DNA of 19,659 nucleotides from Nitrospirota bacterium. GTDB lineage: Bacteria > Nitrospirota > UBA9217. The position numbers and the translations under genes were made by a program. Positions 1,037-18,082 of the stretch are shown here, piece by piece. The DNA lies in NCBI GenBank assembly GCA_963741205.1, contig CAVUHW010000037.1, positions 1 through 19,659 of the forward strand, written 5' to 3'. The notes beneath the pieces were generated by a model, which was not told the origin of the DNA, searched no databases, and worked only from the letters and a program-made list of their open reading frames with translations. Numbering within the stretch: the first letter of the stretch is position 1; every line of letters starts with the position of its first letter.

Positions 1037-2377
1037 CTATTCTTCGCCCCTTCCCATTGCCTTCATAAGCCGTGCGGCGGAAAGGTAATAGTCATAGAGG
1101 GCCTGCACATGATCCGTTTCCGCCCTGAAGTTCGCGAGCCGTGCATCGGTGACCTCGAGTGAAGGTCCTACGCCGGCCTGGTACCTTCCCTCGGCAAGTT
1201 CGAGGTTATCTTTCGCATTTTTCTCAGAAATCTCCATCACGGAAATCCGGGCCGCGGCTGTATCGAGGTCGGCATAGGCCTGGTTAACCTCGAGCAGGAT
1301 CGACTGTCTGAGCCCGTCCCGCTGCGCTTCGAGCGCGCGAAGGTTTGCCCGGGCCTCGCTCACCCTTCCCTTCGTCAAACCTCCCTCGAAGATCGGCATC
1401 GAGAGCAAAACGCCGGCATTCCAGCTGTTCCTGATGTCGCTTTGAAACGTGGCGGACCCCAGTGTGCTGACCGGAATGGTCGCCTCCGAAGTTCCATGCG
1501 CCCAATTATACGATCCGTTCGCGGAGAGTGTCGGAAGATAATTCGACTCGGCCGTCCTGACCCGCGCCTTCGCGGCCTCGATATCTGCAGCTGCCTTTTG
1601 CATTTCAGGCCGATTATTCAGGGCCTCCGTCTGGATCTGGTCCAGAGCCGGCACCGCAGGCGGCTGGGGGAGTTTTTTTTCGATTTCGAGATCGCCGCGC
1701 GGGTCGATTCCCATTGCGTTGCACAGCGCGATGGTTCGAAGTCGGACATCGTTTTTGGCGTTGATCACGCCGAGACGTGCCGAATTCACATCGACCTCTG
1801 CGCGTGTCACATCGAAGCGAGGCTTTGAGCCGGCCCGAAAAAAAGCCTCTGCCTGCCGCATGTGGCCCTCGGTCTGATCAAGCGTCTGTTGAGCCACCAT
1901 CAGCAGCTTGTTTGCCTGAAGCAGCGCATAGTAGGCCTGTTTTACATTCAGGATCACTTCCTGCTTTACGCGGTCGGCATCCGACGCAGCTGACTCAACT
2001 GCCGAGCGGGCGGCATCAAGGCCGCCGCCGGTCTTCCCGAAGTCGTAGATGACCTGGTTCACCGACAGCGTCGTGGTATAGCTCTTCGTGACGCTCTCTC
2101 CCAGTTGCAGCGCTGATCCGAGGGAGCGGCTTTCGGCGTAACCGGTGCTCGCCTGCACCTGAGGCAGATAGGGAGAACTTGCCTGGGTCACCCGTGCCTT
2201 TCCCGCGTTGAGACCTTCTTGCGCAGACCTCAGGGCCGGATGATTCGCCAGTGCCGTGTCGAGGCAGTCGCGAAGGGTCAGCCTCGCCGCCGCGTCTGCG
2301 AGACCCGCGGCTATCGCCATGATCAGCAGCAGGGCGACCGCGGCGCGCATGATCATGTTCATCTTCACCTGCTCCAC
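1037..2377 (-). CDS. TolC-family outer membrane efflux protein
   Basis: 446 aa with a signal peptide, 'LTLRDCLDTALANHPAL', two OEP repeats (YLPQV / YLPTLS) and C-terminal 'LAEGRYQAGVGPSLEVTDA'. True start may be a slightly later Met. Confidence 0.95.
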   Translation of the reverse strand: MEQVKMNMIMRAAVALLLIMAIAAGLADAAARLTLRDCLDTALANHPALRSAQEGLNAGKARVTQASSPYLPQVQASTGYAESRSLGSALQLGESVTKSYTTTLSVNQVIYDFGKTGGGLDAARSAVESAASDADRVKQEVILNVKQAYYALLQANKLLMVAQQTLDQTEGHMRQAEAFFRAGSKPRFDVTRAEVDVNSARLGVINAKNDVRLRTIALCNAMGIDPRGDLEIEKKLPQPPAVPALDQIQTEALNNRPEMQKAAADIEAAKARVRTAESNYLPTLSANGSYNWAHGTSEATIPVSTLGSATFQSDIRNSWNAGVLLSMPIFEGGLTKGRVSEARANLRALEAQRDGLRQSILLEVNQAYADLDTAAARISVMEISEKNAKDNLELAEGRYQAGVGPSLEVTDARLANFRAETDHVQALYDYYLSAARLMKAMGRGEE

Positions 2378-2949
2378 CGGAGTGCAAATTCCATCGCTGC
2401 CCCGGCTATAAGAGGGATGGTGAGATTATCGTTGAGGGGGAGCGGCAGGAGTTCGACTCCGGCCGCGACAAGGGCGCCGAGAATCATGACCCCGGAAGAG
2501 ATTCCCAGTTCCGCGAAGGACAGGAGGTATCCGCCAAAAAGTGCGGCAATGACAAACGCAACGGTACCTTCCAGACTCTTGTTCCCTATTTTCATCCTTC
2601 CGAACCGTTGTCCTATCGTTGTTGCCGCCACATCTCCGAAGGCGAGAAAACAAATGGCTGTGGATGCCGCCGGAGCTGAAAAGGCCCATAACGAGAGGCC
2701 TACGCCGAGGATATAGGGCACGGTGCCGGTCAGCCTGCGTTCTTCGTTCTCCCGGACGAAACTCCTGAAATATGTATAGAGAAAACGGTTCCAGGCGGGG
2801 ATCTTGAGCCGCGCGATTTCAACGGCAAGAACAAGGACAGCGAGCATTCCGTAAAGTTGCAGCGCCGTCTTCCTGCCCGAAGCATAATAGAGCGACAGGA
2901 GCCCGAGTCCGCCGAAAAAATGAAAGAGTTTACGTCCGAGATGATTCAT
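2365..2949 (-). CDS. Polyprenol/phytol/dolichol kinase-like membrane protein (CTP-dependent, cytidylyltransferase superfamily)
   Basis: From Met at 2949: 'RKLFH', 'LAFGDVAATTIGQRFG', 'KSLEG' and 'DNLTIP', the signature motifs of SEC59/VTE5-like kinases; hydrophobic throughout. Confidence 0.85.
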   Translation of the reverse strand: MNHLGRKLFHFFGGLGLLSLYYASGRKTALQLYGMLAVLVLAVEIARLKIPAWNRFLYTYFRSFVRENEERRLTGTVPYILGVGLSLWAFSAPAASTAICFLAFGDVAATTIGQRFGRMKIGNKSLEGTVAFVIAALFGGYLLSFAELGISSGVMILGALVAAGVELLPLPLNDNLTIPLIAGAAMEFALRWSR

Positions 2950-2980
2950 GCGTTTTCGGTCCCGCCAATCCCTGACGCCG

Positions 2981-3988
2981 TCATTCCCGCTTTCCGCGCG
3001 CATAACTCGGCAGGCTGCAGACCTGCCCCGATTCACACTTGTCGCACTCGAGCTGGATCGTACTGTGAAGAACGTTGAATTTCTCTGACAACATATCTTT
3101 GATTTCTTCGATGATGTCCTTGCTCCCGCTTACCATCTGGTCGTCGATGAGCACGTGGGCGCTCATGGCATAGACGCCCGACGTGATCGTCCAGGCATGG
3201 ATATGATAGGCTTCGCGTACGCCCCTGATCTTCGCCATCTCCGCTGCTACATTGTCGATATCGATGTGGCCGGGCACGGCCTCCAGAAGAATATTCACGG
3301 ACTCCTTCACGAGCGCCCATGAACCGTAGATGATGACCAGGGAGATCATCATGCTCAGGATCGGGTCGATCAGGTACCAGCCGGTATACAGGATGATGAT
3401 GCCGCCGATGATGACGCCGACGGACGAGAGCGCGTCGCCGACGATATGGAGAAACGCGCCCCGGATATTGAGGTTGGTGTCCCGGTGCCTGATAAGGATG
3501 AAAGCGCCGGCGATGTTGGCAACAAGACCGATGACCGCGATGATCAGCATCAGCATGCCCTGTACGGGCTGCGGATGCAGCATCCGCAGATAGGCCTCAT
3601 ACATGATGTAGAGCGACAGGAGGACGAGGACGATGCCGTTCAGTAGGGCCGCCAGGATCTCGAGGCGGTAAAAGCCCCAGGTCTTTCGCTCCGTTGCCGG
3701 CAGGGTGGCGAATTTCATCGCGAAAAAGGAAAGCAGGAGGGCGAGGTTGTCCGTCAGCATGTGGCCGGCATCGGACAAAAGGGCCAGGCTGTTCGAGAGC
3801 AGGCCGCCGATCACTTCGGCCACCATCATGAGAACGGTGATCGACAGGGCGATCAGAAGGTCGCGTTTGCCTTCGGCAGGGGCCTGGCGCGGCCCCTCTT
3901 CGAGCGCATGGTCGTGACCATGGTGATCATGGCCGTCGTGCCCGTGGTCATGAGGACGATGTTCGCTATGCGAATGAAACAAAGACAT
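2981..3988 (-). CDS. czcD: Cation diffusion facilitator (CzcD/ZitB-type Zn/Co/Cd exporter)
   Basis: 'SLALLSDAGHMLTD', 'GFYRLEILAALLN', 'NIRGAFLHIVGD', 'HIHAWTIT', 'HSTIQLE' and a His-rich N-terminus; AGGAG upstream of ATG 3988. Confidence 0.93.
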   Translation of the reverse strand: MSLFHSHSEHRPHDHGHDGHDHHGHDHALEEGPRQAPAEGKRDLLIALSITVLMMVAEVIGGLLSNSLALLSDAGHMLTDNLALLLSFFAMKFATLPATERKTWGFYRLEILAALLNGIVLVLLSLYIMYEAYLRMLHPQPVQGMLMLIIAVIGLVANIAGAFILIRHRDTNLNIRGAFLHIVGDALSSVGVIIGGIIILYTGWYLIDPILSMMISLVIIYGSWALVKESVNILLEAVPGHIDIDNVAAEMAKIRGVREAYHIHAWTITSGVYAMSAHVLIDDQMVSGSKDIIEEIKDMLSEKFNVLHSTIQLECDKCESGQVCSLPSYARGKRE

Positions 3989-4041
3989 GATGCAAGACGC
4001 TCTCCTCAGTCCTTTGACCAAAACCGCAGATCCGTCACCGC

Positions 4042-4824
4042 TTAAATCGCGCCGATCTCCGCGGCGTAGCCGTAAAAAGTCAGCAGGCCTTTTCGCTCCT
4101 CCTCGCCGAAACCGTAGCTGAACAATTTCCAGTATTCAAAGAGAACCTCCGCAGGCAGGTTGAACCGGCCTTGTTCCGCGTCAGCAATCTCCCCGAGATG
4201 CGACAGCCCATAGTTCCGGGACTCCATGAGTATATCATACAGCCGTTCAAGCTCCTTGTGAATGTTTTTCCGGTCGTTCACCTGCCAGAGCGCGAATACA
4301 AAGGGCAGGCCGGTGAAATCATGCCAGAGCCGGCCCAGATCATAATGGTAGGCGTATTTCGATGCCATGGACTTCTTGATCGCCAGATCCCCGATCGTGA
4401 GCAAGGCGTCGGCCTGCTTCGAAGGGTCTTCCGCGCCCTGCTCATAGAGTATATAGCCGGGATTCACGCCATACCGGATTTCGAGAAGGATGCGGAGCAG
4501 GACGACCGACGTGGCCGATGCGGTGGTCAGGGCAACGACCCGGTTATTCAGTTCCTCGATTGGGAACTTGCTTTCGAAGAGGATGCTCATGACCCTGCTC
4601 TTCGAGGTAATCGAGAGGTCCGGCATGAGGAGGTAACGGCCCGGGTTCATGGCATACTCGATGGACGACGAAGGCGACACATCCACGAAGCCCTCGTAGA
4701 GCAGCCGGTTCAACTGCGTCGGGATGCCTTCCACCAGTTTAAACGGAAAGGCGACCTTCCGCGTTACGATCCCGGCGTGAGGAGGGAAACAGTTTGAATA
4801 GATGATATGGCCGAGTTTGAGCAT
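4042..4824 (-). CDS. mqnA: Menaquinone biosynthesis protein, chorismate dehydratase (futalosine pathway, MqnA/MqnD family)
   Basis: 'LGHIIYSNCFP', 'P..LNRLL..G.VD.SP.SS.EY', 'SATSVVLL', 'LTIGDLA' and 'DLG..W...TGLPFVFALW' are characteristic of MqnA. Confidence 0.88.
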   Translation of the reverse strand: MLKLGHIIYSNCFPPHAGIVTRKVAFPFKLVEGIPTQLNRLLYEGFVDVSPSSSIEYAMNPGRYLLMPDLSITSKSRVMSILFESKFPIEELNNRVVALTTASATSVVLLRILLEIRYGVNPGYILYEQGAEDPSKQADALLTIGDLAIKKSMASKYAYHYDLGRLWHDFTGLPFVFALWQVNDRKNIHKELERLYDILMESRNYGLSHLGEIADAEQGRFNLPAEVLFEYWKLFSYGFGEEERKGLLTFYGYAAEIGAI

Positions 4825-4859
4825 TGTGCAATCGCCTGGCACAACCACGATGAACCCGC

Positions 4860-5055
4860 AACTCCTGATTGATAACAGCGTTTATCCACGCGGTAGTTCG
4901 ACTGTGAAACATCCTGTTCGGCGATCTTGATGCCTCGTTGCTGCCGAGAGCGGCCTGGTAAGCTCGTCGAGCGTAGTATACCTTCCGCGACCACGCCGGC
5001 GGAGCGGCCATCCGATAAGGACCATGACAATGATGAGTGCCCGCAGTGTTCTCAT
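4860..5055 (-). pseudogene. Truncated N-terminal fragment of a probable TolC-like protein
   Basis: AGGAG upstream of ATG 5055. Across frames it reads signal peptide MRTLRALIIVMVLIGW..., then 'TLDELTR..ALGSN.GIKIAEQDVSQSNYRVDK', resembling the first TolC helix, and then breaks off just before mqnA. Confidence 0.5.
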
Positions 5056-5095
5056 GAGGTTGGGATCCTGTTCTCCTGGTTGCAATCTGCGCGGG

Positions 5096-5753
5096 TCATT
5101 TTTCGGACGCCAGACCGTTGAAAAAGAGCTCCGTAACAAAGGCGCCGAATCTCCGGGGACAGATTTACGCTTTTCCCGTGAACGTATTCAGCCATGGGCT
5201 GAAGGATGAAATTATGAATGATGACGCCGATCAGCGACGCCGCAGCCAGCGAAGGATCGAACTTCTTCAGTTCTCCTTTTCGCATGCCTTCCTTGAAGAA
5301 TTCCGTAAGGCGTGCATAGTTTTCCGAGAAATACTTTTCACAGATCCATGTGCTGTTGCCTCCGCTTGCCGCAAACTCCATGGCCATGATCCGGCGCAAG
5401 TCTTCATTGTTCTGGTGAAATCGGATGGCCCCTTCGACGTACCGTTGTATCTTCAGACGGACCGGGGCCGAGGACTTGAAAATCTCGTTTTCCCAAATGG
5501 CCTTAAGCGCCGAAAATGAATCCGCAAGGACGGATCGGTAAAGGTCGTCCTTGTCCTTGAAGTGGTAATAGATCATCGCGTTATTGACCTTGGCCGCTTC
5601 GGCGACCTCCCTGACCGACGTGCCGTCGAGGCCCCGCTCGGCGAACACGCACCGCGCCGCCGCGAGGATCGCGCCGCGGGTGTCGCCTTCCGTCCGTCCC
5701 GTTTTCGGGCGGCGCCCCGGCGTGCTCTTGTGGTCTTTTGATAATCGTTTCAT
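5096..5753 (-). CDS. TetR/AcrR-family transcriptional regulator (probable frameshift near 5155; uncorrected ORF reads to 5052)
   Basis: HTH 'TRGAILAAARCVFAERGLDGTSVREVAEAAKVNNAMIYYHFKDKDDLY'. The alternative frame gives the typical ending 'FGAFVTELFFNGLASEK*' with TGA at 5096-5098. Confidence 0.92.
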
Positions 5754-5762
5754 GGCATTTAT

Positions 5763-5819
5763 TTAACTAATCGGTTAATTAATTAATACAAACGATACCT
5801 GCTTGCATATATTTGTCAA
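5763..5819 (-). promoter_or_regulatory. Sigma70-type promoter and candidate TetR operator
   Basis: Minus strand TTGACA (5819-5814), 16 nt, TATCGT (5797-5792); inverted repeat TTAAC-N6-GTTAA at 5763-5778 between the promoter and the ATG. Confidence 0.6.
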
Positions 5820-5903
5820 GCGTATTTTGTCCGATGGCGGTGGTGCTATTGCCCTTTACAGGGTCGGGTAAATCGGGAAACGAGGTGGACCGGCGGCTCA
5901 CCG

Positions 5904-6941
5904 TCATATCTCCAGTCCCCGTTCAGTCCGTGCCGGATAAATAAACACCGCCTCCTGTTCGATACGGATCTCCTGCGAGGAGACATTCTCCAGGATGAAA
6001 CGCAGCTGCGTATTGCGATAGGTTAGATTTTTTTTATAGGCCCGGACATAGACCTTCATCTTTGCCGCGCTGTTGGGCTGCAGGACAAAGGGGTTCTGGC
6101 TCATGATGAGCTCCGCGTCCTTGATTCCCGCGATTCTCAGGCGGAATACTTCAGGATCGAGACTCCGGTTTTCCACGATCAGGGAATAGGCATTTATCGT
6201 GTCGTCTTTTTTCCCCGCCTGTGTGTAAGGCTGGGGGTCATCGCGGGATACCCAGAAATCCAGCGGCACCCGCACATAGAGCTGATAGGCAAACAGGACG
6301 GCGATGAATGCGAATGCCGTTGAGAGACCGAGGACACGAAGCCGGGGCCGATGCATCGCGGTCGTCGAAGAAGGCAGTCCGCAAACTTCGCATAGGGACA
6401 GATCTGACGCGCAAGATCTCCGGCGCACGAAGGAGATATTCAGATAGATGAGAACGGTGATGAAGACCCAGGACAGGAATGTCCAGGGGCCAAGGTTGAG
6501 CATGAAGAGGTCGGCCGCCATCTCCCAGGGCGGGACGAAATACCAGATAAGGTTTGCCGCTACAATCATGGACAGGATCAGGAGAAGTGTCCGAGACGAC
6601 GCGAAGCCTGCAAGCCGGCGGCCGCCGAACCTGGTGGACAGTTGATCGATCTTTCTCGTAAAATCGGAGAGGACGGTCTGCGGGCACACCCATCCGCACC
6701 AGGCGCGGCCGTAGAGAACGGTAAAGAGCAGAACGCCGCTCAGGAAGAGGAGAAAGACAAGCAGGAAGAAATACTTCTCGCTGACCCAGATGACGGCGCC
6801 GAAAAAATAGAGTTTAAGCGACGGGATATCGAAACGGAGGGCGCTTTCGCCGTGGACCCGTATAAAAGGAAGGGTAAGCATGACCGCCGCCACCAGCCAC
6901 GCGGAGACCCGGCGTTGGGTTCGAAATATCGTTTTTTCCAT
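5904..6941 (-). CDS. CcoG/FixG-like membrane Fe-S protein; central ferredoxin segment apparently missing
   Basis: 'GRAWCGWVCPQT' motif, TM helices and a C-terminal FixG Ig-like domain ('INAYSLIVENRS...FRLRIAG'). The second motif (C...CPY...FFD) is scrambled by frameshifts and no CxxCxxCxxxCP motifs are present. Confidence 0.8.
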   Translation of the reverse strand: MEKTIFRTQRRVSAWLVAAVMLTLPFIRVHGESALRFDIPSLKLYFFGAVIWVSEKYFFLLVFLLFLSGVLLFTVLYGRAWCGWVCPQTVLSDFTRKIDQLSTRFGGRRLAGFASSRTLLLILSMIVAANLIWYFVPPWEMAADLFMLNLGPWTFLSWVFITVLIYLNISFVRRRSCASDLSLCEVCGLPSSTTAMHRPRLRVLGLSTAFAFIAVLFAYQLYVRVPLDFWVSRDDPQPYTQAGKKDDTINAYSLIVENRSLDPEVFRLRIAGIKDAELIMSQNPFVLQPNSAAKMKVYVRAYKKNLTYRNTQLRFILENVSSQEIRIEQEAVFIYPARTERGLEI

Positions 6942-7028: not shown

Positions 7029-7537
7029 TTATGAACTCGCCAATTGCCCTCTGATCTCGCCTGCAGGGAAGATCTGGGTGTGTATCTGGACGTACAGTCC
7101 GCCGGCTTGAAGGGCGTTGAGCTGAGCAGCTGTCAACACCGTGCCCGCGGGCACAGTCCATGTTCCACTCGTCAATCCTATCCCACCGGTAAGGGGAATG
7201 ATGATCAGCCCGTTTACTCCCGCCGCGCCCTCATGGATATGAGCGGCTGTAGCAACGCTCGACAAGCCGGAGAAACTCACCGTGCCGCTGAGCGCGCCTG
7301 TGGCGAAGTTGACCGAAAGGACCGCGCTGCCGGTCCCGGCCGTGGCAACCGGCGGAACTTCCTGAGCGCCGCTCAGGGAGGCTGTCACAGGCAACCAGTG
7401 ATGCAGCAACCGGCATCGAGGCGGCTGTTCCCGAGGGGACTCCACCGCCTCCGCACGATGCGGCAATGACCGCCAGAAGAAAAAAACCACCGGAAATGAG
7501 GTGTAATGTATCATGGTTTATATTGTATCTTCATCAT
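7029..7537 (-). CDS. CHRD domain lipoprotein (single CHRD; frameshifts in N-terminal part; start 7537 or 7514)
   Basis: CHRD motifs 'LSGAQEVPPVATAGTG', 'TAAHIHEGAAGVNG' and 'GGLYVQIHTQIFPAGEIRGQL'. Adding one T to the T7 run restores FFLLAVIAASC-GGGG (lipobox-like Cys at 7453-7455). AGGAGGGAGG RBS upstream. Confidence 0.85.
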
Positions 7538-7939
7538 CAGGAGCACCTCCCTCCTTGCTCACTTTGCTAATGGATACCATAATGGCTCTCTATTTCAAGT
7601 TAATCGTATTTATACCGGGTGTCAATATAGGGCTGACAATACCAAACGCAGAACTGTTATTTGCTCAATCGTGCACGATATTAATTGCCTGCTTTACAGG
7701 AAGCGTTTGACATCTTGAAATCATCCGTGCGAACCACACGGAAGAAATAATGATTGTGAAGCCGACAATATACTTCTTCAGAATCCCTCTCTATAGCATA
7801 AATCTTTTTTATGACAAATTACGGCTTTAGTATTATTGCGTATCTTCGCAACTCGTGTTATCCTCAAAACTAAAGGCGTCAAGACGCCATGGCTGAAATT
7901 CAACCTATGTCCGAAAGGAACAGGAGGGAGGAAACAACC

Positions 7940-8857
7940 ATGATACACCGTAGACATTTTCTCTGGTCAATCATATTGCTGGTCGGGGTGATCGCTTTGT
8001 CAGTTGCGGTAGTAGCAGCAGATAACAACGCCGACTCCAACGCCAACACCAACAGCTACAGTCACAAAATTTGCAACTCTTGACGGCACCCAGGAAAGCT
8101 ACGCCCGTTACCACGACCGCGAACGGCGCGGGAAGCCTTACAGTTGATACAGGAACGGGAGCTGTGAGCGGTTCCCTGACAATACTGTCGGCCCCTGCAA
8201 CAACGGTCAACAGCGGCGCATGTGCATGACGGGGCAGCGGGCAACGCAGTCATTATTCCCCTGAGCGACTCGGGAGGCGGTGTGTGGAGCGTTCCAGCGA
8301 CCGCTCACGCCGCTGACCGCGGCACAGATAGCCTCGTTCACGGCCGGCACCCTGTATTTTAATGTCCATACGACCGCTAACGCAGGTGGTGAGATACGCG
8401 GAAATATCAATAAAACCACTGCAACTCTGTACGCTCGGATCTGGACGGCGCCCAGGAAAGCCCGCCCGTTACCACCAGCGCAGCCGGCACGGGAATCCTG
8501 ACGGTGAACGCAGCACACGGGAGCTGTGACTGGCTCCCTGAACGGTACTCCAGTTCTCAACCGGCTGAGCGCGTACAGCGGTTCACTGGACGCATTACAT
8601 ACGTAGCGGCGCCTGGCGTGACTACATACGGGCAGCTCGATGTGGTCACGCACGCTGCGACGTCGGGTAACGCTGTGTAGTGCATGGAGCGTTCCGGCAC
8701 ACACACTGGGCGGCGGCGTGTGGAGCGTTCCCGCAAACACGGTGCTGACTCGGCCCAGATAGCCTCGTTCATCAGCGGGAACCTCTATTACAACGTGCAT
8801 ACGACCGCCAATCCAGGCGGCGAGATCCGCGGAAATATCATCCTGATCGCGCCGTAG
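7940..8857 (+). CDS. Tandem (2x) CHRD domain probable lipoprotein with Pro/Thr linker; multiple frameshifts
   Basis: AGGAGGGAGG RBS. Hydrophobic signal MIHRRHFLWSIILLVGVIAL, then 'SCGSSS' and 'TTPTPTPTPTAT' in shifted frames. Two copies of LDG.QE..PVTT...G.G.LTV...GVWSVP...AQIASF..G.LY.NVHTTAN.GGEIRGNI. TAG at 8855-8857. Confidence 0.82.
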
Positions 8858-8942: not shown

Positions 8943-9094
8943 AGAAAGTTCTGATTCAATACCTGAATCCCTGCATTCCTCAAGGTCCGTTCAATCTTCA
9001 CTTACGGGAGGCATTCACCGGAATAGGTATTCCCCCTGACTTAATGCGATTCCAAGAGGGGACAATGAGGAAGTTCAATGGAGGTATGAGGAGA

Positions 9095-9848
9095 TTATAA
9101 AACAGGCGCAATCGACGCCGTTATGGCAACTGGAACATGCGGGCGCAAACCCTGTGCCGCTCGCAGACGATACTGCCTTTCAGATCAAGGCCGTGGCAAG
9201 TCGTGCAGCCGGCAACGAAGTCTCGTCCGTAGGTGCCGTGGAAACCGACGGGATCGTCAGTCGCTGTCAACCATCCTGACGGATGTCCGATGTTGCCGTC
9301 GGGCCCGTTATGGCAGGCAAAGCAGCTCACCTCGTGCGATGCCGCCGTCCAGGTTCGCTCCGTGGCACTGGCTGCACAGGGACGTATCTCTCACCTCTGA
9401 AACAGGTGCTGCGCCGCCTATCAGGCTGGAAAGATAGCCTGCGATGTCCCGGATTTCCTCCTGGCTTAAGACGGCCTGTCCCCGCATGAGCGGGACCCCA
9501 TTGATGGTGCCTGTTATGTTGGCCGGGATGTCCGTCGAAAATTGTAAAATGGCGAGGATGTTTGGGCCGACCTTTCCCTTGGCGGTGCTGCTGTGGCAGG
9601 GAGCGCAGTGCCGTATGAACAGCGCGGCTCCATTGCCGGCGGTTTGTTCCGGCGAGACTGATGTGACCGGGGTAGCGTGGAAGTCCTGCGTGCCGATCGC
9701 AAGCGGACTTGCCCACTGGCTCGGGATGGCCTGTTACCGGAACAAAGACTTTGCCGCGAATCGGTGCCCTTTGCAGGCACGCAGCCATAAGAACGATATC
9801 GCGAGGAGTGCGAGGCCGGATTCGTTATTCTTCCTATTTGATGGACAT
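9095..9848 (-). CDS. Multiheme cytochrome c, probable lipoprotein, 5 CxxCH motifs (frameshifted; start uncertain)
   Basis: CxxCH codons read directly: CAPCH 9593-9607, CSQCH 9362-9376, CFACH 9310-9324, CTTCH 9193-9207, CSSCH 9123-9137. Hydrophobic 'GLALLAISFLWL..AC-KG' N-terminus; ends PVL-TAA at 9095. Confidence 0.8.
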
Positions 9849-10315
9849 TGTTTGCATAGCCTGTTGTTCTGGGTCCCGTGACACCGGTAACAGCTCGTCG
9901 GGTCGAGCCTTCCGTCGATCCTGTGCTGGAAGAGGTAGTCGCCCCGGTGGGGCAGCCACCGCTCGGGAGAACCCGAATATTTTTCACTCGGCTTCAATTC
10001 GTCCTTATACGCGTGGCAATCCGTGCAAAATGAGACCTTGTGGCAGGCATTGCACAACCGGGACGACTGCGAGGCGTAAAACCGGTGGCCGCTGATGAAA
10101 TCGGCGCTGTGGTTGAACGTGGCAATCGGTTTAAGGGCAACGCCCGTGTCTTCCGTATGGCATTCCGTACAGCGAGGCATCGCGGTGAGCTCGATGGGAT
10201 GACTGTCCGGGATTTTCCGTTCGAGCGCGGAACTCAATTCCGGCGACGCGGCGAACAGGATCAGCAGAGATGCCACGAGATAAATTGCACTCGGTATTTT
10301 TTTCTCCTCCATCAT
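9834..10315 (-). CDS. Secreted (probably periplasmic) multiheme cytochrome c; 4 intact CxxCH plus a fifth broken by a frameshift
   Basis: Signal peptide (…ILFAASPELSSA), CTECH, CNACH, CTDCH, CYRCH and terminal CKQC followed by out-of-frame CAT; extra His ligands (SHP, NH, GH, PH, QH). ATG sits right after the porin stop. Confidence 0.88.
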
Positions 10316-10316
10316 G

Positions 10317-11561
10317 TCATCTCCCGCTCTTGAAATTGTATACAAGGTTCAGCAACACCGTGGTGTTATGAAGAAAATCCGGGGTCTTACTATAGTCAAC
10401 GCTCAAATTGGACGTCAACGAGTCGCTGATCGTGTACCGGACAGTTCCGTTCAGTGAATAGGCATCGCTGACGCCGTTAAAAGGCACATCGTAATGATGA
10501 TTGATGGCATCGAAGGAAAACCTCCAGCCTTCCATGTCCTCGGCGACGTAGACCCGTGCCTCGCGGTATCTGAGCTTATCCACGGCGCCCTCCATCCTGT
10601 GGATACGAGGCACCTGCGGAGGTTTTGGAAATTGCCACGATAATTCCGGCGCCGTAATATGCGGCTTCTCCCATGGTCTTGTACGAATAGTTCGTGTAGT
10701 CGACGACTCCCCTGATGCCGTCTCTGAACCGGTATTCCGCCATGCCGCCCAATTTTCGTCAGCGTCTCGCCTCTCCGAGAAAATCCGGAGAGAACACGCT
10801 AAGCGTCCGCGTTGCAAATGCGTCATCATAGTCTGTCCTGGTATACAGACCCGAAAGGATCAGTTTGTTCATGGGAATATCTTGAGGGTATAAGCAGTGT
10901 TCTCCCCATCCTTCCGTTATATTGTTGTAGTACGAATGCCCCTTAAGCTCAACCTTCCGGTAAGGAAGGAGCCAGACATCGACTCCGGTTTCTTCGCGAA
11001 AGCGGGCCTTGTCGTTGGTTTCGTAGAGCAGAGACAACCCGATCTCCGCCCGGTTAGAGAACCGCTGGTACACCCTGCCGCCGTACGCGGCATCGCCTCC
11101 GCGGGTGTCGAACGCCGTCACGACCGGCGACCCGCCGAACAGGGAAAGGCCGTTGGATGGCGTCGCCTCCCAGCGCGACGAGACACCGTCGACTTGCTCC
11201 GTGGCGACACCCTCGAAGATGTAGTGTCTTCCCGCATACAAGAGCAGCCGTTTGTCCTGATAGGGTGAATAGCGCAGATAGGCATAGGTAAGTTCGTCCC
11301 GGGTTTTGTCTCCGAACTCCACGGTCTTGAAGTCATGCGCCCCCCACGCGGAAACGTGAAAGTCCCACTGTCCCTGCTTCTGGTCCCTGCCGTCCAGTTC
11401 CACATATTCATTCAGGGGGGCGTATTGCTGGTCCCGCGCATCATGAAAGAACCTGAGATAGGTTTTCGAGGTCACGTCTGATTTCAGCGGGAGAACTTCG
11501 GGGAAATACGATGGGCGCAGAAGACGGCAAGCAGTAACGATGTTCGGGCTGTGAATGTCAT
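10317..11561 (-). CDS. Outer-membrane beta-barrel porin, probable porin subunit of a porin-cytochrome complex (about 410 aa, frameshifted)
   Basis: Signal peptide MTFTARTSLLLAVFCA from ATG 11561. ORFs 10759..11631 and 10317..10829 give amphipathic, aromatic-rich strands (APLNEYVELD, LLYAGRHYIFEGVATEQVDG, YGGRVYQRF, REETGVDVWL) and end 'LLNLVYNF'. Directly upstream of two multiheme cytochromes. Confidence 0.78.
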
Positions 11562-11602: not shown

Positions 11603-12010
11603 TCAGGTCTTCTGACGCGCCATGTCTTCAAAATTCGCTTTTTTCAGCATGTCCGAAACTTTGGCCTGCACGTTAAACCACAGGGCGTGAGAGGGGCACT
11701 GCTTGGAAAAACTGCATTTTTTCTTGTCGGTAATGCAGATATTCATCGCGAGTTTTCCTTCGATGGCCTCGAGCACTTCAAGGACGGAAATCTCGCGCGC
11801 CTGCCGGGCAAGTGAAAATCCGCCCTTGACGCCGCGGTACGACCGTACGATCTTCGCCTTCACCAGCTTCTGGAGGATCTTGGCCAGAAAACTCCTCGGG
11901 ATCTTGTATTCCTCCGATATTTCGTTGACGAAACTGACTTTTTTAAAAGGCTGGCGGGCAAGATACAAGACGCTGCGTATGCCGTAATCACCTTCCCGTG
12001 TCAGTTGCAT
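11603..12010 (-). CDS. Rrf2-family transcriptional regulator with Fe-S ligands
   Basis: 'LTREGDYGIR', 'FLAKILQKLVKAKIVRSYRGVKGGFSLAR', 'ISVLEVLEAIEG' and Cys triad CITDKKKCSFSKQCPSH. Confidence 0.95.
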   Translation of the reverse strand: MQLTREGDYGIRSVLYLARQPFKKVSFVNEISEEYKIPRSFLAKILQKLVKAKIVRSYRGVKGGFSLARQAREISVLEVLEAIEGKLAMNICITDKKKCSFSKQCPSHALWFNVQAKVSDMLKKANFEDMARQKT

Positions 12011-12136: not shown

Positions 12137-12792
12137 ATGAAATCTGCGTGCATCATTGTTTTCGTTGCAAGCATTCTCCTTCTTCCTGCCGCGACGCCGG
12201 CGCAAATCCTCGGCACGGCCGGACTCTCCGGGGTTGTTTATCCGGCGGGCGCGTCAGTTACGCTGCTCTCCGGAAAGCGGACAGAGGGCTGACGTTGACC
12301 ACTGCTTCCGACGGGAGATATGATTTTGGCTCCCTTGCCGAAGGGAAGTATGTTCTTCAGGCTTCCTCCCCGGGGTACGCGGGTGATGCGGTCGAGGTCC
12401 GACTTTCCGGGGAACGGCATGCCGTTCAAAACATGAGGCTCCTCTATATCTCCCCGATCGACGGAATAGACTGGTCAAAAGGGATCATTCGCGCCAAAGG
12501 ACGGGGCATGTATCCGTCGGACGCGTCAAACCGGCCTGCCGCGCGTGAAATGGCAAAACGCGCCGCTCTTTCCGAAGCCGAGCGAAATCTCTTGCGGATC
12601 GTCGAGCAGATCAAGCTCGGCCCGAAGCAGGAACTCACTTCTCTGCCTGCCCGTAGTTACATCACGAGAATCCACGGCTATCTCCAGGGCTTCCGCGTCG
12701 TTGGCGAGCGGGAAACGGACGCCGGCGTTGAAGTGGAGCTGGAGCTTCCCTTGACCGGACAGAGCGGCTTGACGAGATATATTTCAGATTAA
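12137..12792 (+). CDS. Secreted protein with carboxypeptidase-regulatory-like domain and C-terminal LPP20-like domain (frameshift near the N-terminus)
   Basis: AGGAGG, then ATG 12137 with signal-like MKSACIIVFVASILLLPAATPA; 'TTASDGRYDFGSLAEGKYVLQASSPGY'; 'IDWSKGIIRAKGRG...MAKRAALSEAERNLL'. Confidence 0.65.
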
Positions 12793-12816
12793 GGTCTATA
12801 TCATCCCGGAGTCATA

Positions 12817-13371
12817 ATGGGGCACATACATAGACCTCTGCCGGTCAAGCTGTTCATCGGTATGCTGTCTCCGGAACTTGATCTGTTCGGCGCCTGCTCT
12901 GAAATTCTGCAAAAGGAATTCGGTCCAATCAAGAGCGGCAGCGAATGCATGCCCTGGGACAGGTCGGATTACTACCAGGAAGAGATGGGGCGGAATATTT
13001 TCCGGAAGTTTCTGTTCTTCGAACGGTCAACGGACCCGGGAAAATTGTCCTCCATAAAAAGGTTCACCAACGATCTTGAAAATGACTATGCCGTCAAGAG
13101 CGGCCAGCATCTACGACGAAGGATCAACCTCGACCCCGGGTATGTCACGGAAGCCAAAGTCGTTCTCGCATCGGCCAAGGACTTTGCGCACCGCGTCTAT
13201 ATCGGAGACGGCATCTATGCTGAGGTTACTTTGAAGTACAACACGAAGGATCGAAGTTTTGTCCCCTGCGAGCACACCTATCCCGATTTCAGGACGGCGT
13301 CCTATCTGGCACTGTTTAACAACGTCCGGGAGGATCTTCGGACGGAATTGCGCAAAACCCGCCACTCCTGA
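12817..13371 (+). CDS. DUF4416 family protein
   Basis: 'PLPVKLFIGML', 'DYYQEEMG', 'RRINLDPGYV...VVLASAKDFAHRVYIGDGIYAEVTL' and 'HTYPDF'. Confidence 0.85.
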   Translation: MGHIHRPLPVKLFIGMLSPELDLFGACSEILQKEFGPIKSGSECMPWDRSDYYQEEMGRNIFRKFLFFERSTDPGKLSSIKRFTNDLENDYAVKSGQHLRRRINLDPGYVTEAKVVLASAKDFAHRVYIGDGIYAEVTLKYNTKDRSFVPCEHTYPDFRTASYLALFNNVREDLRTELRKTRHS

Positions 13372-13567
13372 TCTGTCGGAACATCGTGTCGCTGTCATGG
13401 CTTTAGGGATTGACAACCCCATTCAATCATAAAAATCCAGGGGTATCAAATCCGACTCATTTTTTTGCTGGCTAAGGAAATCGCATCCCGCGACCTTCAT
13501 AGGGAGACGAATGGATGTGCATCAGCGGTGATCTCGGTGGGAGAAGCGGATTTCGCCGTCATCAGGG

Positions 13568-13969
13568 TCATGAAGGTTCGGCCCCTTGAGTTAAAGCAGT
13601 TCCACCGGCGCTTTCCAATGCCGCTTCGACAATCCTGCCTAGTTCTTTCGCCTTGATGGGTTTGTTGATATATTCGAATACACCAAGACTGAGCGACTTC
13701 AAATACGTCTCGATGGCTCCATAACCCGTAAGGATGACCACTGGGACCTCGGGAAGAAATTGTTTCAACTGGACGAGAAACTCCAGGCCGTCCATTCCCG
13801 GCATGCGGTAATCCGTTATCACGAGATCCACAGGGGCGCCTTCTTGAATCACCGACAGAGCGGATGGGGCGTCCGGCTTGGTTATGACATTGTAGCCGAA
13901 ACGGTTCAAGATCTCACCAAGACTTCTCCGGATCTCCAGTTCATCGTCCACCAGAAGCAGTGTTTTCAT
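13568..13969 (-). CDS. Single-domain response regulator receiver (CheY-like)
   Basis: 'LLVDDE', 'DLVITDYRMPGMDG', 'ILTGYG' and 'YINKP'; no output domain. Confidence 0.92.
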   Translation of the reverse strand: MKTLLLVDDELEIRRSLGEILNRFGYNVITKPDAPSALSVIQEGAPVDLVITDYRMPGMDGLEFLVQLKQFLPEVPVVILTGYGAIETYLKSLSLGVFEYINKPIKAKELGRIVEAALESAGGTALTQGAEPS

Positions 13970-14596
13970 TGGTTCTGATCTCCGTAGATTATAGCAGGTA
14001 TATTCGGGACACCTTTGTTATTTGTTATTCACACCCGGACCATGAAAAAGCCTGAACACGAGCAAAATGCCATGCACTTTTATACCTCTTCGATAATAGC
14101 ATAAATAACTGTTTCATACTACCGAAGTCGTAAAAAACATAAAATATATAGTAAAATCAAGCTAATATACTATATAGTTTCTGCTTTATTGACGTAGCTG
14201 CGAACGACTTTCTCTTTTTTTCCAGTGTATTATCTACGGAATTTTATCGTCATAAATTAATTAAAACTTTAGTTTTAGTTTAACCATTAAAATCCTTTGT
14301 AAATCAATATATTGTATAAAATATACCAACGCAGAAAGCATTTCTGCTGGAAAAATATTCCGAACGCCCTTCACTCACGCCAGACACTCGTAATCGATGG
14401 GAACAGACAGTCGGAAATAAGTGGACACACTGTGCATCACTAAAAGGAATGCCTATGGGTCTCGCTTCTGGTCTTCGCCGTACTAGTATTTTAAACAAAT
14501 GAAAAAATCAGTAAGCCGTTATTTCTCGGGCAAAAAGGCATTGATTAAGCTATACTTATTTTCACGACCCTATAATAACTCACAAAGGAGATTCCT

Positions 14597-15433
14597 ATGA
14601 CCACTGACGCGTGTCCCATCACAAAATTGGACAAGATTCTATTGGCAACCGACGGGACCGCTTACAGCGAAGGAGCGATACGGGAAGGGATAAAATTCGC
14701 CGCTAAATGTTCGAGTAGGATTTACGCCTGCATGACGATTGAGACGAACCCCGAATATGAAACGATCGGGTCCAGCGCCATGGCAAAAGAGGAAGAAGAG
14801 GCGACTGCACACCTGAAGACCATCAAGGCCAGGGCGGAAAAAGAAGGAGTGACCTGCGAGACTATTTTTCATGAATCGATGGAAGCCTCGCAGGCCATCG
14901 TCGATGACGCCGCTGACAGGATGATGGACATGATCGTTATCGGCAGGCACGGATACAAAGGCCTGGTTAAGGCCTTGATGGGTGAAACTGCCGCAAAAGT
15001 CATCGCCCATGCCCCCTGCAAGGTCCTCGTTGTTCCGAAGGCCGCCCAGATAGAATACAAAAACATACTGGTCGCTACCGATGGCTCGGCTCACGGCAAT
15101 GCGGCAGTCAGTGAAGCGATCACCATCGCCAAGCGTTGCGGAAGCCACGTCATCGCGCTTTCGGCAATGCGCGATGAACGCGAACGGGATGAGGCAAACA
15201 CCTTATCAAGCACTGCCGTTGAACTGGCGCGAAAGGAGGGAGTTTCGGCGGAGGCGGTGACTCCCATGGGGAGATCGTACGACGTAATCGTCGAAACGGC
15301 AGGCGGCAGAGGGGTCGATCTCATCGTGATGGGGGCCTACGGGAAAACAGGCGTTAAGAAGCTCTTGATGGGAAGTGCGACGGAAAAGGTCATCGGGTCA
15401 GCCGGCTGCGCCGTGCTCGTGGCCAAGGCATAG
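14597..15433 (+). CDS. Universal stress protein, two tandem USP domains
   Basis: Two 'IL.ATDG' starts, 'IVIGRHG...MGETA' and 'IVMGAYG...MGSATEKV'; AAGGAG RBS. Confidence 0.95.
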   Translation: MTTDACPITKLDKILLATDGTAYSEGAIREGIKFAAKCSSRIYACMTIETNPEYETIGSSAMAKEEEEATAHLKTIKARAEKEGVTCETIFHESMEASQAIVDDAADRMMDMIVIGRHGYKGLVKALMGETAAKVIAHAPCKVLVVPKAAQIEYKNILVATDGSAHGNAAVSEAITIAKRCGSHVIALSAMRDERERDEANTLSSTAVELARKEGVSAEAVTPMGRSYDVIVETAGGRGVDLIVMGAYGKTGVKKLLMGSATEKVIGSAGCAVLVAKA

Positions 15434-16251: not shown

Positions 16252-17031
16252 CTAGAACCTGACGGTCACACCAGCGCGAACCGACTGGTCTACTTCCGTG
16301 TCATTGCGTCCGAACAGGAATCCCGCACTCAGATCCAGCGAGTCCTGTGGAGAATAGATGAGACCGATCTGAGCGAAGACGGGATAACTGCTGTCTGTGG
16401 AATCAGCATTTCTGGTTGCACCGATTTCTCCCACGATCTTCCACCGTTCAGCCATTGCAAATCGACTGGCAAGCGAACCGAGCCATATATTGGTGCGATT
16501 CCCCGATGAGTTCGGGAGATACAGATAGCCGAGATTCACATCGAAGGACCAGGGTTCAGCATCAACGGTCGAGATCAAGGATGCTGAATAGTCAACGTGA
16601 CCAGATCCCAGACCCTTGTCCGCATCGCCCGTGGGAATGATTATGCCGGGTTTGATCGCCAGACTGAGTTTTTGCTTGTCGAAGAATCGCCATTTTGCCT
16701 CAATAGCGGTATCGAAAAGTCCGTGATTTCTCGTAATCGTTCCTGATTCTTTTGTGTCAGTCCATACATAGGGCACAGTAACCATCACATCCATGGTCTC
16801 GGCAATTCCTGCGGTCAATACGACCGTGGCAATGGAATTAAGCTCTCTCACTCCCTCGCCACCCTCGTTTTTCTTGTCGGTAAGCCAGGTGCCCGATGCT
16901 TCGAGTTGATACTTTCCGGTCCCCTGCGTCCCCGTATCATCCGTAACAAGCGGATGCGCCGCCCATGATGCCGCCGGTATTACCAAAACCGCACAAAGCG
17001 TAAATATTCCGGCCAGCTTCTTCAAATACAC
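16252..17031 (-). CDS. Outer-membrane beta-barrel 'transporter' (Phenol_MetA_deg/COG4313-like)
   Basis: GTG start after GGGGAGG; signal peptide ending ASWA; 'HPLVTDDTGTQG', 'AKWRFF', 'PTGD..KGLGSG..D'; C-terminal Phe (VTVRF). Confidence 0.8.
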   Translation of the reverse strand: MYLKKLAGIFTLCAVLVIPAASWAAHPLVTDDTGTQGTGKYQLEASGTWLTDKKNEGGEGVRELNSIATVVLTAGIAETMDVMVTVPYVWTDTKESGTITRNHGLFDTAIEAKWRFFDKQKLSLAIKPGIIIPTGDADKGLGSGHVDYSASLISTVDAEPWSFDVNLGYLYLPNSSGNRTNIWLGSLASRFAMAERWKIVGEIGATRNADSTDSSYPVFAQIGLIYSPQDSLDLSAGFLFGRNDTEVDQSVRAGVTVRF

Positions 17032-17175
17032 CGATCGATCTCCTCCCCATCTTGGTTCATAGATACTCTTAAAACATCATTACGTGCCTGTCTTTCATGG
17101 TATCAATACATGATTCATCAACAACGTAAATATCGTCATGACCTTAATTGTTCTGTCTTGACTTGATACACATTT

Positions 17176-17922
<747 letters not shown>

Positions 17923-18082
17923 CTCCACCTCCGCATTCCCCTTTGCCAAGGTTCCATCATTCCTCAGTCCAGACATAATTTCGCTAGTCTACTTCTCCCA
18001 CTTCCGTTTCCAAACCAGACCATAATCAACATCATCACCGTATTGTAAAATTACTTTTCCTTACTGCTGGCGCCTCCTTTTT

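Follow-up and report, generated by a model that had tools for sequence, protein, structure and literature searches.

Does a lipoprotein cytochrome of a Nitrospirota bacterium carry a class I monohaem domain nested inside one unit of a dihaem repeat, and what might a haem of that type do there? The gene that raises this question lies on the minus strand of contig CAVUHW010000037.1 (assembly GCA_963741205.1), whose 19,659 nucleotides we call the window. A first-pass annotation had read in this gene two tandem units of the form GHP..W..FH..CxxCHG..L.G..CxxCH, with an additional domain set into the first. All the motifs that it had quoted were found on the minus strand, and the gene was delimited by frameshift-aware alignment to the homologues P0176, P0181 and P0173. 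Its parts are listed below; short motifs were placed by motif mapping, and A1 denotes a family alignment of 46 rows numbered as P0181.

9095..9857, minus: pentahaem lipoprotein cytochrome c gene
9777..9814, minus: remnants of the signal peptide and lipobox (LALLA and IVLMAAC, in two different frames)
9671..9731, minus: N half of dihaem unit 1 (GHP..W..FHAT), with H39, W43, F54 and H55 near-invariant in A1
9731-9723, minus: GHP of unit 1
9685-9671, minus: DFHAT
9431..9640, minus: predicted nested class I monohaem cytochrome c domain (Pfam PF13442 and PF00034)
9607-9593, minus: CAPCH, the class I haem motif
9496-9479, minus: VPLMRG, with the candidate axial Met at 9487-9485
9469-9431, minus: LSQEEIRDIAGYL
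9310..9376, minus: C half of dihaem unit 1 (CSQCHGANLDGG....CFACH), placed with a hidden Markov model (HMM) of the unit derived from P0071; frame break at 9331 between the two motifs
9376-9341, minus: CSQCHGANLDGG, whose CSQCH is 9376-9362
9324-9310, minus: CFACH
9123..9288, minus: dihaem unit 2 (GHPSGW..FHGTYG..CTTCHGLDLKG....CSSCH), placed with positions 2-42 of the unit HMM; frame break at 9165
9288-9271, minus: GHPSGW
9243-9226, minus: FHGTYG
9207-9175, minus: CTTCHGLDLKG, whose CTTCH is 9207-9193
9137-9123, minus: CSSCH

The product is about 250 residues long and has five CxxCH motifs. Based on three-frame translation of 9050-9850 and motif mapping, it starts with the Met at 9857-9855 or 9848-9846 and ends at the stop codon 9097-9095. 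The lipid-anchor Cys is encoded at 9779-9777 and corresponds to Cys23, which is near-invariant in A1; both GHP..W..FH halves were found, at 9731-9671 (unit 1) and 9288-9226 (unit 2). As given, the gene changes frame nine times (at ~9841, 9824, 9798, 9775, 9756, 9722, 9331, 9165 and 9113), and three motifs are each out of frame with their neighbours, namely GHP and the second CxxCH in unit 1 and the second CxxCH in unit 2. The frame across the insert in unit 1 is continuous, as had been claimed: 9721-9332 (SQW to GIAR, 130 codons) is unbroken and holds DFHAT, the inserted domain and CSQCHGANLDGG. Two details of the annotation needed correction. DFHAT and CSQCH are 98 residues apart and not about 85, and unit 2, though its architecture is contiguous, is split between frames.

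The class I domain within dihaem unit 1

Scored on 9311-9733 (minus strand), the translated piece matched the Pfam families Cytochrome_CBB3 (PF13442; E 1.5e-10, 41.7 bits, cutoff 27) and Cytochrom_C (PF00034; 33.3 bits, cutoff 21.3). The matches span residues 32-101 or 34-103 of the piece, corresponding to 9431-9640, in agreement with the prediction of a class I match at about 9420-9640. Employing phmmer against PDB chains, we obtained matches to CcoP of cbb3 oxidase (3mk7_C, E 1.7e-5), SorU (4pw9_B, E 5e-5) and actinobacterial QcrC; a family profile matched CcoP at E 1.7e-12 and domain 2 of PgcA (8qjg_A, 'Lipoprotein cytochrome c') at E 7.3e-6.

The AlphaFold2 model of the window's 130-residue piece, built on a 49-row alignment, had a mean predicted local distance difference test score (pLDDT) of 84.2 and a predicted TM score of 0.79, with pLDDT 89-98 over the domain. 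A model of the full-length homologue P0181 showed pLDDT 83-98 over the class I domain. In Foldseek searches of PDB, every listed match was a c-type cytochrome, nearly all of class I type (probability at most 0.99, best E 0.015). The matches included PgcA domains 1 and 2, c554, c6, c-556 and the c domain of cd1 nitrite reductase, with target-normalised TM scores of 0.76 for PgcA domain 1, 0.66 for c554 and 0.62 for c6. Judged by sequence, the nested domain is a genuine class I cytochrome domain and more than a chance resemblance; the model and its structural matches suggest the three-to-four-helix class I fold.

The uninterrupted form of the repeat is found in P0071, which has 16 tandem units of the form HPxGW..FLHA..CxxCHGxDYxGG..CxxCH, and P0067 is similar. 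In 48 of 49 family proteins, an HMM built from 15 of the P0071 units (the truncated sixteenth was left out) placed the C half directly behind the class I domain (independent E-value, iE, <1e-5); the sole miss, P0030, stops before that point. On the window itself, the C half of unit 1 was matched at iE 3e-6 and unit 2 at iE 7.3e-4, and the whole second unit was matched in 13 of the 49 proteins (iE <1e-3). In a regular-expression census of 359 proteins, whose patterns miss some members (e.g. P0017 and P0192), 64 units showed a gap of 10-29 residues from FH to the paired motif with no CxxCH inside, and 46 units showed a gap of 80-109 residues with exactly one CxxCH inside; none fell between the two classes.

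Homologues both with and without the insert were found. P0190 (185 residues) has the lipobox, 'SGEVFVP', the N half and two dihaem units in common with the family, but the class I domain of about 85 residues is missing; its unit 1, which is uninterrupted, aligned with unit 2 of P0014 (E 4e-5). An N half equivalent to that of unit 1 directly precedes the paired CxxCH motifs in P0190 and in the units of P0071. The Pfam match, the unit HMM match on the C half and P0190 agree with the annotated nesting in unit 1 of a tandem dihaem repeat: in the lipoprotein as reconstructed here, the class I monohaem domain sits between FH and the first CxxCH of unit 1. Two further features of P0190 were seen. The first haem motif of its unit 2 is CAGFCH, with CxxxCH spacing, and its junction retains 'LTEAEI', perhaps left over from the C-terminal helix of the class I domain.

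An exhaustive search of representative proteins gave 411 matches at E <= 0.001 (55 at E <= 1e-10), mostly arrays of class I domains. Matches covering the whole query, flanks as well as domain, include P0002, P0007, P0014, P0015, P0017, P0035 and P0042. The search with P0014 gave 46 matches, all of them single proteins (185-367 residues), in support of the claim of one gene and not two; about 44 have the nested architecture (about 200-370 residues), and the rest are P0190 and three weak partial multihaem matches. They are named only 'hypothetical protein' or 'mono/diheme cytochrome c family protein', and identity to the window piece is 80-91% in the closest relatives. Some distant members are fused to CHRD domains: P0002 has two whole cytochrome modules and a CHRD domain, P0007 one module and several CHRD domains (three matched stretches in Pfam), and P0015 one module and one CHRD domain. 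In all three, the CHRD domains lie C-terminal of the cytochrome module. A search of genome contigs for related loci gave nine, of which two were inspected and rejected, one (L003) being a chance match in a phosphatase-like open reading frame and the other (L009) an ordinary class I cytochrome.

Haem ligands, gene cluster and proposed electron path

Three columns are invariant in A1: M119 (the Met of VPLMRG), G121 and L125. The lipobox Cys, the five CxxCH motifs, His39, His55, His78, His186 and His201 are near-invariant. The candidate Met lies exactly where the first-pass annotation had placed it (9487-9485) and is invariant in the 49 rows of alignment A3 as well. Because A1 shows no conserved His within the class I domain, this Met is the sole conserved candidate for the sixth ligand. 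Its placement after CAPCH fits the class I pattern, in which one N-terminal CxxCH is followed some 35-50 residues on by a conserved Met. In HMMER alignments it pairs with the Met of 'GPM' in SorU (4pw9_B) and of 'AAM' in CcoP (3mk7_C), which we take to be the axial ligands of these proteins. The class I haem of the lipoprotein probably has His/Met ligation.

The N half of unit 1 carries two conserved His, the presumed distal ligands. Counted over both units, the four His of GHP and FH (H39, H55, H186 and H201) match the four haems outside the class I domain, and in the uninterrupted units of P0071, too, there are two His for every two haems. The four remaining haems are probably bis-His, which fits the four conserved His. 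As for potentials, the accessible text of PMC10570954 places the two His-Met domains of PgcA at -48 and -65 mV, the bis-His one at -106 mV and OmcF at +180 mV. With the His-Met domains of PgcA at such values, the potential of the His/Met haem in the lipoprotein need not be high.

The lipoprotein gene is the last of a cluster led by a regulatory gene; the other members are as follows.

11603..12010, minus: Rrf2-family regulator at the head of the cluster (Pfam Rrf2, E 3.4e-35)
10320..11561, minus: outer-membrane beta-barrel gene, about 413 residues (alignment to P0315; nearest Atlas cluster)
9838..10315, minus: pentahaem cytochrome c with signal peptide, about 159 residues (alignment to P0194; alignment A6)

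In the Atlas, the barrel is nearest to 'Beta-barrel porin 2 family' and to a cluster consisting mainly of Nitrospirota (both 0.99), and two close matches (78-79% identity) are named Nitrospirota bacterium; the barrel has no Pfam or NCBIfam match. Its distant relatives P0344 (399 residues) and P0345 (318 residues), 50-55% identical, have an N-terminal class I monohaem domain with PF00034 above cutoff. In the pentahaem protein, five CxxCH motifs and five further His are invariant or near-invariant in A6, and the frame break at ~9844 runs through the fifth of these motifs, CKQC(H). The components of a porin-cytochrome gene set are adjacent here: a barrel, a multihaem cytochrome with a signal peptide and a lipoprotein with a near-invariant Cys23.

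Homologues of the three structural genes repeatedly report identical 'longest contig' figures (116226, 5152, 53962, 24514, 4020, 5840, 14355, 28665, 9998, 47374, 2697 and 2203), from which we infer that they lie on the same contigs and that the cluster is conserved elsewhere. P0345 and the pentahaem homologue P0230 also report the same figure (572014). A complex prediction for the barrel, the pentahaem protein and the lipoprotein as partner scored 0.01 against a mark of 0.32 and counts neither way. Before the Rrf2 gene there is a promoter-like site (12044-12017) with 11 of 12 positions, but it is weak, 3 such sites being found versus 1.7 expected by chance; neither promoter-like nor terminator-like counts were clearly above chance.

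With moderate confidence, we favour the reading that the gene encodes a nested five-haem lipoprotein within a compact porin-cytochrome-type conduit, that its His/Met class I haem is peripheral and that the frame breaks are most likely errors of sequencing or assembly. In each dihaem unit, the N half (GHP..W..FH) would give two distal His and the C half (CxxCHG..L.G....CxxCH) would bind two haems, so that about 230 mature residues would hold four bis-His haems, forming a short wire, and one His/Met haem. Nesting may be tolerated by the class I fold because the helices at its two termini pack against each other. Its haem would be the peripheral end of the five-haem chain, an entry or exit site for contact with a substrate or soluble partner, and its ligand set and potential would differ from those of the wire. 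The conduit would consist of the lipoprotein, the barrel and the small pentahaem protein, and might carry electrons inward or outward. To our knowledge, bis-His ligation is almost universal in the multihaem wires of outer-membrane conduits. A conserved family with a His/Met class I haem inside a dihaem repeat would exemplify the natural grafting of cytochrome modules, and the lipoprotein (~25 kDa) would be a small model for wiring one differently ligated haem into a chain.

On the other side of the lipoprotein gene are CHRD genes and, just past them, a FixG-like gene.

7889..8857, plus: convergent multi-CHRD gene with signal peptide, broken across three frames (tblastn of the CHRD part of P0002, frames +1, +3 and +2)
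7029..7514, minus: CHRD-domain protein gene (Pfam CHRD, E 2.6e-34)
5904-6941, minus: FixG-like protein (Fer4_5 and FixG_C)

Beyond the FixG-like gene are genes for a TetR regulator, MqnA/MqnD-type menaquinone synthesis (futalosine pathway), CDF cation efflux and an outer-membrane efflux protein. The recurring CHRD link (adjacent genes here, fusions elsewhere) could hint at the function of bacterial CHRD domains and would be a first such hint; our literature search gave no paper linking CHRD to cytochromes. The three-gene cluster, the Rrf2 regulator, the Cyc2-like barrel relatives and the CHRD link are leads on extracellular electron transfer in a poorly studied lineage. A bolder proposal, which we regard as doubtful, is that they represent an undescribed class of minimal (5+5 haem) conduit in Nitrospirota-like bacteria, with a class I His/Met site either in the lipoprotein or fused to the barrel and CHRD proteins as metal- or mineral-binding accessories. 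If true, the oxidation of Fe(II)/Mn(II) or the respiration of minerals could proceed by a new route.

Topology, origin of the insert and frame breaks

Several observations weigh against the favoured reading. The default orientation of a lipoprotein is towards the periplasm. Neither the barrel nor either of the multihaem proteins reached the cutoff of any curated Mtr or Pcc family (MtrC-MtrF_II-IV, 14-16 bits against a cutoff of 30), and the pentahaem protein, like the barrel, has no NCBIfam match. Neither Foldseek search gave a match at E <= 0.001. The AlphaFold2 model of P0181 reached only pLDDT 50-70 over the multihaem parts and, with these parts of low confidence, was set aside for haem geometry. 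His78 (~9610-9608), which immediately precedes the class I CxxCH, is puzzling: its conservation in the core family is at least 90%, yet it would make six potential ligands for five haems, and the position is non-His in CHRD-fused and other distant members. P0190 is the only sequence without the insert and comes from a 954-base contig. Finally, six of the nine frame breaks crowd within 120 bases at the 5' end of the lipoprotein gene (9722-9841), while other genes on the contig are intact.

The alternative that survives best concerns topology and is, in our view, possible though unlikely. The lipoprotein would face the periplasm, where its class I domain would dock periplasmic partners of class I type (soluble cytochromes, cbb3 oxidase or bc-type complexes) and collect electrons brought inward by the barrel-embedded pentahaem protein, as in Fe(II)/Mn(II)-type oxidation. 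The closest sequence relatives of the domain (CcoP, actinobacterial QcrC and SorU) are indeed electron-transfer domains of the periplasm. Also, the N-terminal class I domain of P0344 and P0345 recalls the layout of the Cyc2-type iron oxidase, which the accessible part of PMC9040806 describes and whose homologues it reports as common in Nitrospirota. PgcA, however, is an extracellular lipoprotein cytochrome and is among the best structural matches. The gene order likewise argues against a periplasmic location, as it mirrors the Geobacter Pcc cluster, in which the lipoprotein is presumably outside. The CHRD fusions are no help on topology.

Returning to the nested lipoprotein, its domain may have a history other than insertion, although we consider this improbable. 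The class I CxxCHG would then be the first CxxCH of unit 1, followed by an extra paired half unit gained by fusion or duplication, or P0190 would have lost the domain. In 5 of the 49 proteins, positions 2-42 of the unit HMM aligned across GHP..FH and the class I CxxCHG instead (best iE 1.5e-3); the 'LTEAEI' at the junction of P0190 resembles the 'LSQEEI' helix of the family, as a deletion scar might; and the family has 46 units with the domain to 1 without. But the five alignments are weak, CxxCHG..G being generic to class I cytochromes, whereas the match of the C half after the domain is strong in 48 of the 49 proteins and the gap sizes are cleanly bimodal. The functional architecture is identical whichever history holds.

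We see only a small likelihood that the lipoprotein gene and the whole cluster are pseudogenes in the source organism, with the nine breaks of the lipoprotein and the seven of the barrel being real. The three consecutive genes at 9098-11561 have 16 distinct breaks (the one in the pentahaem gene is common to the start region of the lipoprotein), versus genes at 1037-6941 and 12148-15433 that appear intact; the crowding at 9722-9841 points the same way, and the breaks in the lipoprotein gene lie outside long homopolymers. Old pseudogenes, however, gather stops as well as substitutions. In frameshift-aware alignment, the lipoprotein was identical to P0176 in 228 of 267 columns, the barrel to P0315 in 358 of 417 and the pentahaem protein to P0194 in 141 of 160; in-frame stops were absent, and every frame piece was 85-86% identical to intact homologues.

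The quality of the contig accounts better for the breaks. It contains an uninterrupted poly-T run of about 745 bases (~17177-17923; GC 0.10 over 17001-18000), almost certainly a sequencing or assembly artefact, and the convergent CHRD gene at 7889-8857 likewise changes frame, which suggests a locally poor consensus. With broken genes at 9098-11561 and 7889-8857 beside intact flanking genes, the consensus quality must be very uneven along the contig. Given the lack of in-frame stops, the 85% identity to intact homologues and the poly-T run, the nine breaks of the lipoprotein gene are most likely local consensus errors of a poorly polished assembly. One break at ~9841-9844 affects two genes, disrupting the last haem motif of the pentahaem protein as well as the N-terminal end of the lipoprotein; around it, at 9836-9848, the pentahaem stop overlaps the lipoprotein start. 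The poly-T run adjoins the 5' end of a Phenol_MetA_deg-like gene at 16252-17031.

An assembly chimera, in which a bad read joined a class I and a multihaem cytochrome gene, can be dismissed with near certainty in spite of the gross artefacts of the contig (poly-T run, many indels): family searches and conservation in A1 refute it, the nested architecture recurring in about 44 independent single proteins from several sources and in fusions of 568, 610 and 367 residues, and both domain junctions lie within one unbroken 390-base frame.

Comparison with known systems

Among characterised proteins, PgcA of Geobacter sulfurreducens (PDB 8qj6 and 8qjg) is similar in kind. This extracellular trihaem lipoprotein, like the lipoprotein described here, has small class I-like monohaem domains, and in the accessible text of PMC11520253 these His-Met domains stand next to a bis-His haem. 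PgcA domains match the family profile and rank among the best structural matches to the window model. In PgcA, however, the haem domains are strung as separate beads on flexible Pro-Thr linkers, whereas the class I domain here is nested in a packed dihaem unit and accompanied by four further haems; the two proteins show no overall homology. According to the accessible part of PMC6971198, OmcF of the same species is a class I monohaem cytochrome of c6-like type that has a lipid anchor and His-Met ligation and is found in association with the outer membrane. It is a stand-alone monohaem protein of 104 residues, and its likeness to the lipoprotein is by description.

OmbB-OmaB-OmcB of Geobacter and MtrCAB of Shewanella comprise the same gene set as found here, namely a barrel, a periplasmic multihaem cytochrome and a multihaem lipoprotein, and the order of genes in the window is presumably that of ombB-omaB-omcB with the regulator upstream. 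The cluster differs from the known porin-cytochrome conduits in its 5+5 haems, versus 8+12 or 10+10. Our literature searches found no class I His/Met domain in the described porin-cytochrome conduits and none with a nested class I design, in keeping with the annotator's failure to recognise the architecture among characterised conduits.

Cyc2, a fused monohaem cytochrome-porin, shares its layout with P0344 and P0345, the likeness being one of layout. CxxCH is absent from the window barrel and its close homologues P0315 and P0331, and only the distant P0344 and P0345 have one. In the window, in contrast to the Cyc2-like case, it is the lipoprotein that carries the class I haem, and the barrel has no haem motif. 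In addition, P0344 and P0345 have fused domains of PF00034 type, whereas the nested domain is of PF13442 type.

The dihaem units have their own parallels. Their C halves correspond to the doubled CxxCH motif of Paired_CXXCH_1 (PF09699 / TIGR01905), although PF09699 scored 14.5 bits on the window piece against a cutoff of 20.6, and P0181 scored 24.8 as a whole protein with no single stretch passing. The long dihaem-repeat proteins P0071 and P0067 have uninterrupted units without a class I domain. In a phmmer search with P0071 against PDB there was no match at E <= 0.1, so the dihaem repeat has no solved relative there.

The accessible part of a survey of Desulfuromonadia cytochromes (PMC11492766) held nothing relevant, and that of a preprint on peat (10.64898/2026.05.27.727921) describes other, larger conduits with 8-13 haems. 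The parts of the lipoprotein and its cluster are of known kinds (class I cytochrome, doubled CxxCH and porin-cytochrome gene sets); the nested class I/dihaem combination is not described in the literature searched, and no curated family covers it. The surprise is moderate, as the family is already in databases under generic names and Atlas leads (scores at most 0.87) point to other uncharacterised clusters that mix PF13442 with c7/c3-type domains. These leads suggest that mixing cytochrome classes is not unique to the lipoprotein of the window. Its design is real and moderately unusual, and it is not a one-off.

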